IMG/VR virus record: IMGVR_UViG_2737471860_000008
Location: 1 to 48,484 of that record
Direction: 5' to 3' (one strand)
Length of the DNA: 48,484 bases
Source: a virus
Lineage: Duplodnaviria > Heunggongvirae > Uroviricota > Caudoviricetes
Below the pieces are notes generated by a model. It saw only the letters and a list, made by a program, of their open reading frames with translations, was not told the DNA's origin and did no database searches. A program made the position numbers and the translations under genes. Shown one piece after another: positions 14,161 through 17,574 of the stretch. Every line of letters begins with the position of its first letter. The stretch's first letter is position 1.

Positions 14161-14382
14161 GTGAATATGAGCACACTCGCAGACCTTATTCATGCTGATA
14201 TGGCGGAAGATGGAGCAAGGCGTAATAGGTACTGGAAATCATCAAGCCTTCCAGTTTATGAAAGATTCAACCACAGGCCAAAACCAAAACGGAGTCGAAG
14301 AGACAAGGTGTTGAAAAAACTCATGCAAATTAACATGGCTGGTTTTGTCAGATTCGTGAGTGAAACGACTAACGGGGATTGA
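14161..14382 (+). CDS. Hypothetical basic nin-region protein, 73 aa
   Basis: GAGAGG SD; basic C-terminal half. Confidence 0.4.
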   Translation: MNMSTLADLIHADMAEDGARRNRYWKSSSLPVYERFNHRPKPKRSRRDKVLKKLMQINMAGFVRFVSETTNGD

Positions 14383-14383
14383 T

Positions 14384-14842
14384 ATGGACGATTCAAGAAA
14401 GCAGTTTGAAGAGTGGTTTAAAAACAAATATCACGTTTCAAGTGACGTGATGAAGATTATGCACATCAAGGTCGAGATTGCATGGGAGGCATGGCAGGCA
14501 TCGCGAGCAGCTATTGAAATAACCGCGCCAAAGTTTATCGACAGCAGAGAAGCATTAGCCAAAGGGTTTACTGTTGATTATTCCAATGGCTTCGGTGATG
14601 CAATGGATGCTTATGAGGAAAACATCCAGCTCTGCTGGAGTCAAAGTGAAGGAGTGAGTATGAGCGAGTTAAAGCCATGCCCGTTTTGCGGAGACAACGC
14701 GATGATTATGCGCATTCCTGAAAGTGGATGGCGATATGGCCAGTGCATGTCATGTTTTAGCAATGGCCCAAAGAGGCCTGATTACGAAGGCGCGGTAATA
14801 GCATGGAACCGGAGAGCAGGAGATGAAGAAACTAACGTTTGA
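14384..14842 (+). CDS. Protein with C-terminal Lar-family (restriction alleviation) zinc ribbon; possible nested start at 14660
   Basis: C-terminus MSELKPCPFCG...CMSC...AWNRRA matches the Lar-type motif; AAGGAG SD precedes the internal ATG at 14660. Confidence 0.55.
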   Translation: MDDSRKQFEEWFKNKYHVSSDVMKIMHIKVEIAWEAWQASRAAIEITAPKFIDSREALAKGFTVDYSNGFGDAMDAYEENIQLCWSQSEGVSMSELKPCPFCGDNAMIMRIPESGWRYGQCMSCFSNGPKRPDYEGAVIAWNRRAGDEETNV

Positions 14843-15239
14843 ACTAAGAAGCCACATCCATCAGCAGAACGCCATTCAAGCCATCCAGCAAATCCTTCCA
14901 GACCCAACCAAACCAATCGTAGTAACCATTCAGGAACGCAACCGCAGCATTCGGCAAAATGCACGCCTTCACGCGATGCTATCTGAAATAAGTAAGAAGG
15001 CTACATATCATGGAAAAGCAAGAAATATTGAGTTTTGGAAGGGGTTATTCGTTTCTGGTTGGCAGATTGCAACCAACCAGCACCCTGAGATTATATCAGG
15101 GTTAGAAGGTGAGCTAATAAACATCAGAGAGAGTACGGCGACTCTATCTGTAAAAAAAATATCCGAAATAATGGACTACATAGAAGCATATTGTGCCATG
15201 AACTCAATTCATCTTAGCGAATGGAGGAATTATGATTGA
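14823..15239 (+). CDS. ninB: NinB-like recombination protein, C-terminally altered by an HNH cassette insertion
   Basis: N-terminus MKKLTFELRSHIHQQNAIQAIQQILPDPTKPIVVTIQERNRS matches lambda NinB as I recall it; the native C-terminal codons (KARWGDRAA) are found at 15805-15834 fused to the HNH ORF. Confidence 0.7.
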   Translation: MKKLTFELRSHIHQQNAIQAIQQILPDPTKPIVVTIQERNRSIRQNARLHAMLSEISKKATYHGKARNIEFWKGLFVSGWQIATNQHPEIISGLEGELINIRESTATLSVKKISEIMDYIEAYCAMNSIHLSEWRNYD

Positions 15240-15834
15240 GGTTTGGGTAGATATCGAAGGGATTCCATTTTATCAGGTTAGCAATAAAGGAAATTTCAGG
15301 TCTATTACGAGGGAAGTTACAGTAACATCAACCAGACAGAGGCCATATAAGAAAATAATTAATGGCACTAGTGTAAAACCATTCAAGTGCAAGTCGACAG
15401 GATATCTTCAAATAAAGGTATACGGTAAGAAATACAGCGCCCACAGGATAGTTGCGAAAGCATTCTGTACAGGGTTTTGTGATGGCTTGGTAGTTAATCA
15501 CAAAAATGGGCGAAGAGATGACAATAGGGCTGATAACCTTGAATGGGTATCACATTCTGAAAACTCAAAACACGGATATAAACAAAATGGAAGAATACCT
15601 ATATCGCTAGGTAAATTTAGTGGTGACCATCCTGCCAGTAAAGCTGTTATTTCTACTGACATGAAAACTGGGGAGGAGGTTTATTATGAAGCAGCTATGG
15701 ATGCTGTCAGAGAAGGATTTGATAGTTCGTCAATTAGTCGTTGCTGTAATGGCGAAAGCTCATATCACAAAGGAAGATTCTGGCGATTTGCAAATGAAAA
15801 AATGAAAGCGCGATGGGGAGACCGGGCAGCATGA
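15232..15834 (+). CDS. HNH homing-type endonuclease, 200 aa, ending in the displaced ninB 3' codons
   Basis: HNH motif [24 protein letters not shown]; NUMOD-like N-terminus; AT-rich relative to flanks; own GGAGG SD. Confidence 0.8.
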
Positions 15835-16004
15835 TGCGATGTTATCGGTGCGGTGAATGCAAAGAAGATAACCGCTTCCGACCAAATCAACCTTACTGGA
15901 ATCGATGGTGTCTCCGGTGTGAAAGAACACCAACAGGGGTGTTACCACTACCGCAGGAAAAGGAGGACGTGTGGCGAGACAGCGACGAAGCATCACCGAC
16001 ATAA
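15831..16004 (+). CDS. Small zinc-ribbon nin-region protein (NinD-like?), 58 aa
   Basis: [22 protein letters not shown]; start overlaps ninB stop (ATGATG/TGA). Confidence 0.5.
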
Positions 16005-16153
16005 TCTGCGAAAACTGCAAATACCTTCCAACGAAACGCTCCAGAAATAAACGCAAGCCAATCCCAAAAGAATCTGACGTAAAAACCTTCAACTACACGG
16101 CTCACCTGTGGGATATCCGGTGGCTAAGACATCGTGCGAGGAAAACAAGGTGA
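15971..16153 (+). CDS. ninE: NinE-like protein, 60 aa
   Basis: [60 protein letters not shown] matches lambda NinE as I recall it. Confidence 0.7.
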
Positions 16154-16859
16154 TTGACCAAAATCGAAGTTACGAACAAGAAAGCGTCGAGCGAGCTTTA
16201 ACGTGCGCTAACTGCGGTCAGAAGCTGCATGTGCTGGAAGTTCACGTGTGTGAGCGTTGTATATATGAATGCTTAAATATGGTGGAACATAATGAGAAAT
16301 ATAAGCAACATAGACGAATTAAGAAATAAATTATCATATGATGATGTTTTAGGTGTACTTAGATGGAAAGTGTCTCCTTCTAATAATGTTAAGGTTGGCA
16401 GTGTTGCTGGTTACATTAGGAGTGATGGTTATAGGATGTTAACTATCGATGGTGTAATTACTTATGCTCACCACGTCATATGGATGATAAATAATGGTGA
16501 GATTCCATTAGGGTATAAAATTGATCATATAAATGGAGTAAGGTCAGATAATAGGCTATCTAATCTTCGATTGGTTACACACCAACAGAATGCACAGAAC
16601 CAAAAGAGAAAAATAACCAATTCGTCAGGAGTGACTGGAGTATATTTCAATAAAGAGAGATGTAAGTGGATTGCGAATATATGCGTAGATGGGCGCACCA
16701 AATATCTTGGAATATTTGCTAGCATCATTGACGCTATTGCAGAAAGGAAGAGGGCAGAAAAAGAACTGGGTTTTCATGAAAACCATGGCAGACCATAACT
16801 GCGCAGAACTGATGAGCGATCCGAATAGCTCGATGCACGAGGAAGAAGACGATGAATGA
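16150..16859 (+). pseudogene. ninF: ninF split by a 539-bp HNH endonuclease cassette (5' part 16150-16260, 3' part 16800-16859 in a different frame)
   Basis: 5' part encodes ...QESVERALTCANCGQKLHVLEVHVCERC and 3' part encodes CAELMSDPNSSMHEEEDDE, which together match lambda NinF as I recall it; 539 bp between them shifts the frame. Confidence 0.6.
16292..16798 (+). CDS. HNH endonuclease with AP2-like DNA-binding region, 168 aa
   Basis: HNH motif IDHINGVRSDNRLSNLRLVTHQQN; AT-rich; lies entirely within the ninF interruption. Confidence 0.8.
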   Translation: MRNISNIDELRNKLSYDDVLGVLRWKVSPSNNVKVGSVAGYIRSDGYRMLTIDGVITYAHHVIWMINNGEIPLGYKIDHINGVRSDNRLSNLRLVTHQQNAQNQKRKITNSSGVTGVYFNKERCKWIANICVDGRTKYLGIFASIIDAIAERKRAEKELGFHENHGRP

Positions 16860-17574
16860 GTTAATAAATGGCAATGCCATCAAAATGACAAGCATTGAAA
16901 TCGCTGAGTTGGTTGGTAAGCGTCATGACAATGTGAAACGTACCATCGAAACGCTGGCTAAAAATGGTGTTATCCGGCTTCCTCAAATTGAGGTTTCCGA
17001 AAGAATCAATAACTTAGGGTTCAATGTTCAGTACGAGCATTACGTCTTCGAAGGCGAACAAGGTAAGCGAGACAGTATTGTCGTTGTTGCCCAGTTGTCG
17101 CCGGAATTCACCGCTCGCCTTGTTGACCGTTGGCGAGAGCTTGAAGACGCTGCGGTTAATATCCCCAAAACTCTACCAGAAGCGTTGCGCCTTGCTGCTG
17201 ATTTTGCTGAGCAGAAAATGCAACTGGAAAACCAGCTCGCAATTGCCGCACCTAAAGTTGAGTTTGCCGATCGCGTTGGCGAGGCCAGCGGAATTTTGAT
17301 TGGAAACTATGCAAAGGTTGTTGGTATTGGTCCAAACAAACTGTTTGCATGGATGCGCGATCGCAAAATCCTTATTGCTTCAGGTTCCCGGCGCAATGTG
17401 CCAATGCAGGAATATATGGATCGCGGCTATTTCACCGTAAAAGAAACAGCGGTCAACACAAATCACGGAATACAGATATCGTTCACCACAAAAATCACCG
17501 GGCGTGGTCAACAGTGGCTGACCAGAAAGCTGCTCGATAACGGAATGCTGAAAGTAACAGGGGAGGCTGCTTAA
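16852..17574 (+). CDS. Rha/Ant-family phage regulatory protein (antirepressor-like), 240 aa
   Basis: N-terminal Rha-like region (MTSIEIAELVGKRHDNVKRTIE) and C-terminal ANT-like region. Confidence 0.65.
   Translation: MNELINGNAIKMTSIEIAELVGKRHDNVKRTIETLAKNGVIRLPQIEVSERINNLGFNVQYEHYVFEGEQGKRDSIVVVAQLSPEFTARLVDRWRELEDAAVNIPKTLPEALRLAADFAEQKMQLENQLAIAAPKVEFADRVGEASGILIGNYAKVVGIGPNKLFAWMRDRKILIASGSRRNVPMQEYMDRGYFTVKETAVNTNHGIQISFTTKITGRGQQWLTRKLLDNGMLKVTGEAA

Follow-up and report, generated by a model that had tools for sequence, protein, structure and literature searches.

Free-standing homing endonucleases of T4-type phages, such as MobE and the Seg proteins, are encoded between or within conserved genes and carry flanking DNA along with them; for MobE, gene conversion in one direction is reported to move the endonuclease gene together with the DNA around it (PMC2790892). 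In lactococcal Skunavirus phages, I-HmuI-like HNH endonucleases are reported to cluster by insertion location and to show marker exclusion (PMC12724721). In Gram-positive phages, fusions that join an Orf/NinB-family recombination mediator to an HNH nuclease have been published (DUF968, PF06147; PMC4118853, PMC2034487). Here we describe an HNH endonuclease gene at the 3′ end of the recombination gene ninB in a 48,484-nucleotide (nt) virus genome of the class Caudoviricetes (IMG/VR record IMGVR_UViG_2737471860_000008, positions 1–48,484; hereafter the window). From sequence comparisons we propose, with a probability of about 0.65, that the plus-strand segment 14949–15804 is a mobile two-part cassette, in which a free-standing I-HmuI-like homing endonuclease gene would be combined with the linked 3′ two-thirds of ninB.

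Chimeric structure of ninB

The chimeric ninB (orf) gene occupies positions 14823–15239 on the plus strand and encodes 138 amino acids (open reading frame (ORF) call; matches to Pfam NinB, to PHROG 72 and, with phmmer, to lambda Orf, Protein Data Bank (PDB) entry 1PC6). The prophage of Escherichia coli STEC308, in which an intact 146-residue lambda-type ninB is followed by the same ninD, served as the empty-site reference, and the anatomy and boundaries of the cassette were observed directly in ungapped end comparisons of the window with it. On the left, identity to the lambda-type gene covers ninB nt 1–126 only and stops at window position 14948. This resident part (14823–14948, plus strand; codons 1–42, delimited by alignments to lambda and STEC308) forms the left recombination joint, and its nt 63–126 are identical among the window, lambda and STEC308. 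On the right, the window is identical to STEC308 from 15805 on, through the end of ninB, ninD and a later ninF that carries an HNH gene. Lambda-type identity is lost after nt 126 and returns at 15805, and therefore 285 nt of the resident ninB have been replaced by an 856-nt AT-rich mosaic patch (14949–15804, plus strand), composed of ninB codons 43–138, which belong to a clade of HNH-linked NinB genes, and the body of the HNH gene.

Both ninB codons 43–138 and the HNH gene have a GC content of 0.39, compared with a value of 0.50 over the whole window. The earlier interpretation of this DNA from its letters alone (the sequence-only reading) had taken 580 bp to be cleanly inserted between two codons, directly after the residues SEW of NinB. 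The 285-nt-for-856-nt replacement relative to STEC308 does not agree with that interpretation: over the 275 nt 5′ of the proposed SEW junction, the foreign ninB segment has only about 50% nucleotide identity to lambda-type ninB. An HNH ORF with a GGAGG motif of its own does lie in AT-rich DNA, as had been read, but the AT-rich segment begins at about 14949, inside ninB, and not at 15225. A presence/absence polymorphism is seen at this one site, STEC308 being the lambda-type, cassette-free counterpart of the filled site with the same tail and ninD; the empty alleles are of lambda type and do not belong to the linked clade.

Junction and retained ninB tail

The junction between the two genes (GGAGGAATTATGATTGA; 15223–15239, plus strand) comprises the Shine–Dalgarno (SD) sequence of the HNH gene (GGAGG, 15223–15227, 4 bases ahead of the ATG), its ATG at 15232 and the ninB stop codon at 15237–15239, and encodes the NinB end (W)RNYD. 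The HNH start overlaps the ninB stop (ATGATTGA), so that conserved NinB tail codons supply both the SD sequence and the ATG of the HNH gene (GGAGnnnTATGA); the W of SEW is encoded by the ribosome-binding site TGGAGG. The same type of junction is present in a relative from Yersinia and at two metagenome loci (L006 and L007). The ORF translation ends ...HLSEWRNYD, so the earlier description of ninB as running to ...HLSEW and stopping after four codons was right, although those codons are not foreign: RNYD belongs to the conserved junction W/G-R/G/K-x-Y-D/E that is common to all HNH-linked NinB relatives.

Downstream of the HNH body, 15805–15834 (plus strand), which is read in the HNH frame as KARWGDRAA followed by a stop, is the remnant of the 3′ end of the resident lambda-type ninB and marks the right recombination joint. 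KARWGDRAA is the C-terminus of lambda NinB, these 30 nt are identical to the intact ninB 3′ end of the STEC308 prophage (30/30), and a six-frame translation of the window contains the nine-residue string a single time; the match reflects homology and not chance. The NinB C-terminus given in the sequence-only reading was correct, and its statement that the last nine ninB codons are fused in frame to a homing-type HNH gene at the ninB 3′ end holds for ORF 15232–15834. Coordinate arithmetic shows that the tail is in frame +1 with respect to ninB. Within the remnant, GGAG at 15817–15820 stands 10 nt upstream of the ninD start. As also noted earlier, that start still overlaps the preceding stop (ATGA, with the ATG at 15831), coupling ninD (15831–16004, plus strand; Pfam NinD 1e-40; 100% identical to STEC308) to the stop of the HNH gene, formerly that of ninB.

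The NinB protein

The NinB core domain is present (Pfam PF05772, 2e-40, 137.9 bits, profile positions 2–129 of 131), and residues 1–130 align with residues 1–126 of lambda Orf (PDB entry 1PC6; phmmer, E = 1e-30). The final LSEWRNYD corresponds to Orf 127–134, with SEW paired with S128-D-E130 and not with L135-E-W137; given this alignment, the EW of SEWRNYD is not the lambda L-E-W137 that precedes KARW. The protein ends at about Orf residue 134 and lacks the C-terminal α5 helix (W137, W141), the remaining coding sequence of which is now joined to the HNH gene. Many uninterrupted NinB relatives have an equally short C-terminus, and the helix is therefore not a defining feature of the family. In lambda Orf, α5 mutations lower DNA binding modestly, W137A raising the dissociation constant on single-stranded DNA from 223 to 628 nM (PMC4118853). 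By analogy, this modest effect is consistent with a working, helix-less NinB in the window.

A run of eight adenines (A8) lies inside ninB at 15152–15159. In two viral contigs that are otherwise near-identical (L048 and L050), a frameshift at this run truncates NinB (...SVKKYPK) and leaves the HNH gene intact, which could be a sequencing error, pseudogenisation or slippage-prone variation. Formation of a NinB–HNH fusion by slippage at the run was considered and rejected, as the shifted frame stops after KKYPK, like that of L048 and L050.

The HNH endonuclease

The HNH endonuclease ORF (15232–15834, plus strand; 200 amino acids) was assigned by Pfam, by its match to I-HmuI (PDB entry 1U3E) and by PHROG 59. 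Its I-HmuI-like body is composed of residues 1–186 (to position 15789), the span of the PHROG 59 match. Pfam detects NUMOD4 (1.4e-13, above the cut-off) and HNH_3 (2.4e-11; 43.5 bits against a cut-off of 24.8), and a weak match to I-HmuI_NUMOD-like falls under the 27-bit cut-off (9e-4, 19.2 bits). Residues 55–186 align with residues 36–170 of the 174-residue I-HmuI chain (phmmer, E = 4e-14). In the catalytic motif VVNH90KNG...SEN111, H90 pairs with H75 of 1U3E and N111 with N96, so that the general-base His and the distal Asn of I-HmuI are conserved. D74 of I-HmuI is replaced by Asn. The closest phage relatives are annotated as homing endonucleases, including the intron-encoded I-KsaIII and yosQ.

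The body is followed by a linker, ANEKM (15790–15804, plus strand), which is the part of the cassette beyond the I-HmuI-homologous region and has counterparts at the same place in Salmonella phage SEN22 (ADERM) and Acinetobacter (ANER). No Rfam intron match or ribozyme signal was found in 14700–17000, even at E ≤ 10. The Pfam scan found no Hint domain and no match to PF06147 (DUF968), and ninB and the HNH gene are two ORFs in different frames.

A NinB clade linked to HNH genes

The closest NinB relatives, taken from the top hits of a search of 5.8 billion proteins, range from 99% down to about 56% identity, and all end in W/G-R/G/K-x-Y-D/E. The DNA of relatives was inspected in SEN22, Yersinia (L004), Acinetobacter (L008), Pantoea (L010) and Mixta (L012), and in the metagenome loci L006, L007, L053 and L072; in every one of them an HNH gene overlaps the ninB stop by 7–40 nt. 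NinB identity to the window is 55–67% for the Yersinia, Acinetobacter, Pantoea, Mixta and metagenome relatives. Across all examined loci of the clade, which range over E. coli, Yersinia and Acinetobacter, ninB has an HNH gene or the remnant of one on its 3′ side. A neighbour-joining tree of the NinB core places nine taxa, all HNH-linked, in an inner clade with 91% bootstrap. Monophyly of all HNH-linked NinB proteins was rejected: only this nine-taxon clade is supported, and L053 and a further contig, L068, are placed elsewhere.

Uninterrupted NinB proteins from more distant branches of this large subfamily either finish with ...ERWAA, ...PDRWAA or ...KKWSARWGA or stop early; the long NinB tail is therefore ancestral but not universal. 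An uninterrupted copy of the ninB allele of the window was not found with an artificial empty-site query in 50,697 phage records and 5,426 E. coli genomes, nor among the top hits of the protein search.

Homologues of the window HNH protein (53–58% identity) were also observed in three other contexts. In the metagenome phage locus L070 (2115–3067), the HNH gene follows a different NinB subtype, and NinB and HNH both end ...AA with an ATGA overlap; a DnaB-type helicase gene downstream (L070, 5041–5567) has a weak Hom_end_hint (intein) match and may hold a second kind of homing element. In Pseudomonas aeruginosa (L073, 2166–3094), the homologue follows an unrelated ORF of 112 amino acids, and in Klebsiella (L074, 2077–3085) a very distant NinB-like ORF whose Pfam NinB match (E = 0.004) is below the cut-off.

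Two HNH types and their NinB-tail remnants

Two unrelated types of HNH gene occur at the ninB 3′ site. Type 1, that of the window, is I-HmuI-like, and its family-homologous body ends ...HKGxxWRF at residue 186, where the 1U3E and PHROG 59 matches also end. Type 2, which combines HNH_3 with an AP2-like half, is present at the ninB site in L006, L007 and L053, and is also the type of the second HNH gene of the window, which starts at 16292 within ninF.

Most HNH C-termini at the site carry NinB-tail remnants of 2 to about 20 residues, of which SDASRLEIEWATRWGKS and AFGTQRGVEWSPTSLGRAA are examples. After the HNH body, the window has ANEKM followed by KARWGDRAA, SEN22 has ADERM-AA and Yersinia has GDKGKVAA; the corresponding ends are ANERDMSSAVMRWAQQHNRSSAA in Acinetobacter, ATDADTAEIKQWIGYSGDKNRSAA in Pantoea, SDASRLEIEWATRWGKS in L072, where it resembles the lambda NinB end, and ...QAIEWASRFGDKQRAAA in L006. 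The AA of SEN22 is the P22-type tail of the context in which that gene itself lies. In L070, the HNH protein ends in AHAFGTQRGVEWSPTSLGRAA (compare lambda AFGTERGVKWSDE...) and the upstream NinB in ...INAWMTENVEVAA; the remnant spans overlapping NinB positions with a different sequence, and NinB and remnant therefore come from two alleles. Nearly all tails end in GCNGCATGA, with a purine-rich, SD-like motif 6–13 nt 5′ of the ATG of the next gene.

The second HNH gene of the window (16292–16798, in the region 16108–16859; 168 amino acids, GC content 0.36, HNH_3 plus an AP2-like half) interrupts ninF cleanly. Nucleotides 1–60 of lambda ninF match 16150–16209 at 60/60 positions and nt 115–171 match 16803–16859 at 53/57, and the orphan ninF tail, CAELMSDPNSSMHEEEDDE, is read in a third frame that differs from that of the HNH gene. 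The arrangement is 100% identical in the STEC308 prophage, where PGAP labels its parts 'NinF', 'HNH endonuclease' and 'NinF, incomplete, missing N-terminus'. As at the ninB site, an HNH gene has come to lie in the 3′ part of a small nin gene, close to its end, and leaves an orphan tail; unlike there, the insertion is truly clean and the tail is not in the HNH frame.

Spread, selection and decay

The near-identical patch was observed in many different flanks. Compared with phage APC_JM3.2, the window is identical at 283/283 positions in the ninB part of the patch and at 565/573 in the HNH gene, as against 107/126 in the ninB 5′ end and 27/30 in the tail, and the downstream DNA is unrelated. Across 14 loci, the patch is 98.5–100% identical and is combined with at least six ninB 5′ alleles, seven tail variants and at least four downstream genes, the tail variants tracking the downstream gene and not the patch. 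This comparison used a strict anchor and left out the Shiga toxin (Stx)-type loci L023–L035; L025, L033, L036 and L044, of which L025 and L033 belong to the loci left out, were compared by eye. The same 1012 nt recur at 99.1% identity in about 60 Stx-converting phages, where they are followed by a DNA methyltransferase gene (dam) instead of ninD. The cassette allele is distributed over about 63 phage records and 77 of 5,426 complete E. coli genomes, and was never continuous with the tail in the E. coli set.

Between the window and SEN22, the ninB patch has a non-synonymous divergence (dN) of 0.079 and a synonymous divergence (dS) of 2.6 (dN/dS about 0.03), and the HNH gene a dN of 0.14 with saturated dS; beyond this pair, dN/dS is uninformative, as synonymous sites are saturated. 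As estimated from these alignments, purifying selection acts on both the ninB patch and the HNH gene. The ninB gene has thus not simply been decapitated, as the sequence-only reading held, but encodes a 138-residue NinB of the HNH-linked clade (91% bootstrap; dN/dS about 0.03 against SEN22).

Decayed copies were also observed. In L029 (2910–4700), a 1.2-kb insertion sequence (IS) of the IS5 family (DDE_Tnp_1, 1.7e-35) interrupts the HNH gene after about nt 140, and in the Mixta prophage (L012, 2910–3600), IS1 (InsA domains) cuts it to 123 amino acids. Several E. coli database proteins (P0124–P0127) are frameshifted or partial versions of the window HNH, P0127 being out of frame beyond residue ~145, which shows that pseudogenes of the HNH are in circulation among prophages. 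In L068 (2913–3095), a contig from the Hadza gut, a NinB ending ...STWRTYND is followed by a 60-residue ORF of no known family and by no HNH gene. The first seven residues of that ORF, MIDWRYY, resemble MVDWHYY of the type-2 HNH in the sister locus L053, and by sequence the locus looks like one in which the HNH body was replaced and the junction kept. HNH-free copies with the same C-terminal architecture, to which the sequence-only reading had pointed as counter-evidence, were found as decayed copies only (L068 and the IS-disrupted L029 and L012).

The window (1–48484) looks like a complete lambdoid phage or prophage, about 48.5 kb long, with a strongly mosaic make-up. An ORF 5′ of ninB (14360–14842; 160 amino acids from the first GTG) overlaps the ninB start by 20 nt and contains a Lar restriction-alleviation domain at residues 103–153 (Pfam 6.6e-10); an internal ATG at 14661 after AAGGAG suggests that the Lar-like part may be a separate gene.

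Origin of the cassette

The nuclease activity, target site and homing of the window HNH are inferred, and the following steps would account for the locus. The nuclease would nick or cut the lambda-type ninB of cassette-free phages or prophages, and a cassette-bearing genome would serve as the template for repair of the break. With crossovers in the conserved ninB 5′ block (nt 63–126) and at or inside the ninB tail, the cassette would take the place of codons 43 to about 137 of the resident ninB during repair, and carriers would be shielded from self-cleavage by the divergence of their linked ninB allele. Of the resident gene, the final 30 nt would also survive, and the HNH ORF, which has no stop of its own, would read through them. 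The tail has probably been kept because translation of the next gene is initiated there, with an SD-like GGAG and the ATGA overlap.

Several observations weigh against this account. Ordinary lambdoid module exchange could give the same mosaic without a nuclease. The wider HNH-linked NinB clade of 12 taxa has a bootstrap of 37% only, and no close HNH-free allele of the clade was found in the searches described above, so that lambda-type alleles, with differences spread over 285 nt, have to serve as the empty side of the filled-versus-empty comparison. Window and Yersinia share 62% amino-acid identity in NinB and 66% in HNH, a long co-divergence that outlasts the textbook cycle of invasion and decay and would also fit a functional partnership. 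Moreover, the tail is kept at the protein level in some lineages (16/22 residues between L006 and L007, counted by eye) and has a dN/dS of 0.24 over the last 15 codons, which a purely DNA-level role does not fully explain.

Among the alternatives, it is unlikely, though conceivable, that the ninB–HNH unit is a passive mosaic module, exchanged at short conserved joints through general or Red/Rad52-type recombination, with the HNH gene as a passenger. Both joints do lie in short stretches conserved among ninB alleles (nt 63–126, and the tail with its ATGA overlap), and the whole window is mosaic, its best phage match, vB_EcoP-683R2, covering 40% of the first 25 kb in 15 pieces at 96% identity. 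The HNH gene is nevertheless under purifying selection, which implies that it does something, and the near-identical patch stands in at least six different 5′ contexts; moreover, HNH genes of two families recur at exactly the ninB 3′ site in distant lineages, and this recurrence indicates site-directed spread rather than neutral shuffling. We consider doubtful a functional partnership in which a domesticated HNH makes nicks or breaks for NinB-mediated recombination, as a two-gene equivalent of the Orf–HNH fusions, and in which the α5 tail might aid contact with DNA or NinB. It would account for a linkage of NinB clade and HNH that spans deep divergence with both genes similarly diverged, for the failure to find an HNH-free close relative of the allele in phage, E. 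coli and protein searches, for HNH homologues after another NinB subtype (L070) and after the weakly NinB-like Klebsiella ORF, and for long α5-like tails in several lineages, and NinB/Orf–HNH fusions have been published. The HNH is, however, of the I-HmuI/NUMOD homing type and not of the DUF968 zinc-finger type of those fusions; two unrelated HNH types occupy the site, one of which also splits ninF; erosion of the tail has left AA in SEN22 and GDKGKVAA in Yersinia; HNH genes have been lost to IS elements or frameshifts with ninB still intact; the Pseudomonas HNH homologue follows an unrelated gene; and most lambdoid NinB genes have no HNH neighbour. A more far-reaching version, in which the HNH would make targeted breaks in rival lambdoid genomes or prophages, the helix-less NinB would channel them into recombination, and α5 on the nuclease would contact DNA or NinB in a co-evolving two-gene module, is speculative and has a low probability; if true, the module would be a split analogue of the Gram-positive Orf–HNH fusions and a built-in engine of lambdoid mosaicism.

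The literal form of the insertion, a 580-bp HNH element between the SEW and KARWGDRAA codons of one ninB that left four foreign codons, is very improbable and for the window is already contradicted by the alignments, even though the rejoined parts give a 143-residue protein with 47% identity to lambda NinB over its full length, eight nt at the left junction (CGAATGGA) match STEC308 directly 5′ of the tail, and an uninterrupted relative, P0021, has the tail KKWSARWGA. The 275 nt 5′ of the junction are as foreign as the HNH gene and are 100% identical to the patch elsewhere, and the tail matches its local lambda-type surroundings at 100%; in addition, RNYD-type ends are conserved wherever an HNH gene follows, SEW aligns with Orf 128–130, and the NinB and remnant of L070 come from two alleles. 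That full-length NinB is restored by a self-splicing element (an intein or a group I or II intron) has next to no probability. The NinB tail kept downstream of the HNH gene speaks for it, but there is no Rfam intron match in 14700–17000 and no Hint domain in the Pfam scan, the HNH ORF fills the insert, and ninB stops at 15237–15239 with the tail in the +1 frame. The two-part mobile cassette is the reading that we prefer.

Comparison with known systems

The ninB–HNH cassette is real and well defined, but it is ordinary and widespread and is no new kind of system. Both genes are already annotated in GenBank/RefSeq, as 'HNH homing endonuclease' in SEN22 and as 'NinB protein (Fragment)' and 'endonuclease' in APC_JM3.2, and our literature search found no description of an HNH gene at the lambdoid ninB 3′ end, of the linked NinB clade or of the captured tails. 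The locus is a well-resolved natural case of a homing-type nuclease reshaping a temperate-phage gene, in which many lambdoid and Shiga-toxin phages have had most of a recombination gene overwritten by a near-identical patch that spares only the few codons holding the start signals of the next gene. For annotation, it accounts for the 'fragment' calls of ninB and for the NinB residues at the end of an HNH protein. It also offers a concrete case for testing whether gene conversion driven by a nuclease contributes to mosaicism among lambdoid phages, Stx-converting ones included.

The window HNH shares its architecture, including the HKG..W/F.RF/Y C-terminal DNA-binding module, with I-HmuI, the intron-encoded HNH nicking homing endonuclease of Bacillus phage SPO1. 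Unlike I-HmuI, it is free-standing with no intron around it, has a 14-residue C-terminal extension of which nine residues are the NinB tail, and is an enzyme by prediction. The Orf–HNH fusions of Gram-positive phages likewise bring together a NinB-family recombination mediator and an HNH nuclease, but they are single polypeptides with a zinc-finger HNH, whereas the window has two ORFs in different frames and an HNH of the NUMOD4/HNH_3 homing type. The Skunavirus I-HmuI-like HNH proteins are among the nearest phage homologues of the window HNH (tblastn, 31–35% identity), and their clustering by insertion location is comparable to the site fidelity of the HNH genes that follow ninB; hosts and insertion sites differ, and the accessible part of that account describes no captured host-gene tail (PMC12724721).

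A parallel in layout exists with the T4-type free-standing endonucleases, which, like the window cassette, are placed between or within conserved genes and take flanking DNA with them, and an 856-nt patch with variable flanks fits intronless homing of the MobE type with co-conversion. In contrast to those systems, the cassette resides in a temperate lambdoid phage or prophage, what is co-converted is a fixed and highly divergent allele of the target gene itself, and homing is presumed. The cassette fits current views of homing-type nucleases at the boundaries of genetic exchange between phages (PMC10448857, PMC12724721).

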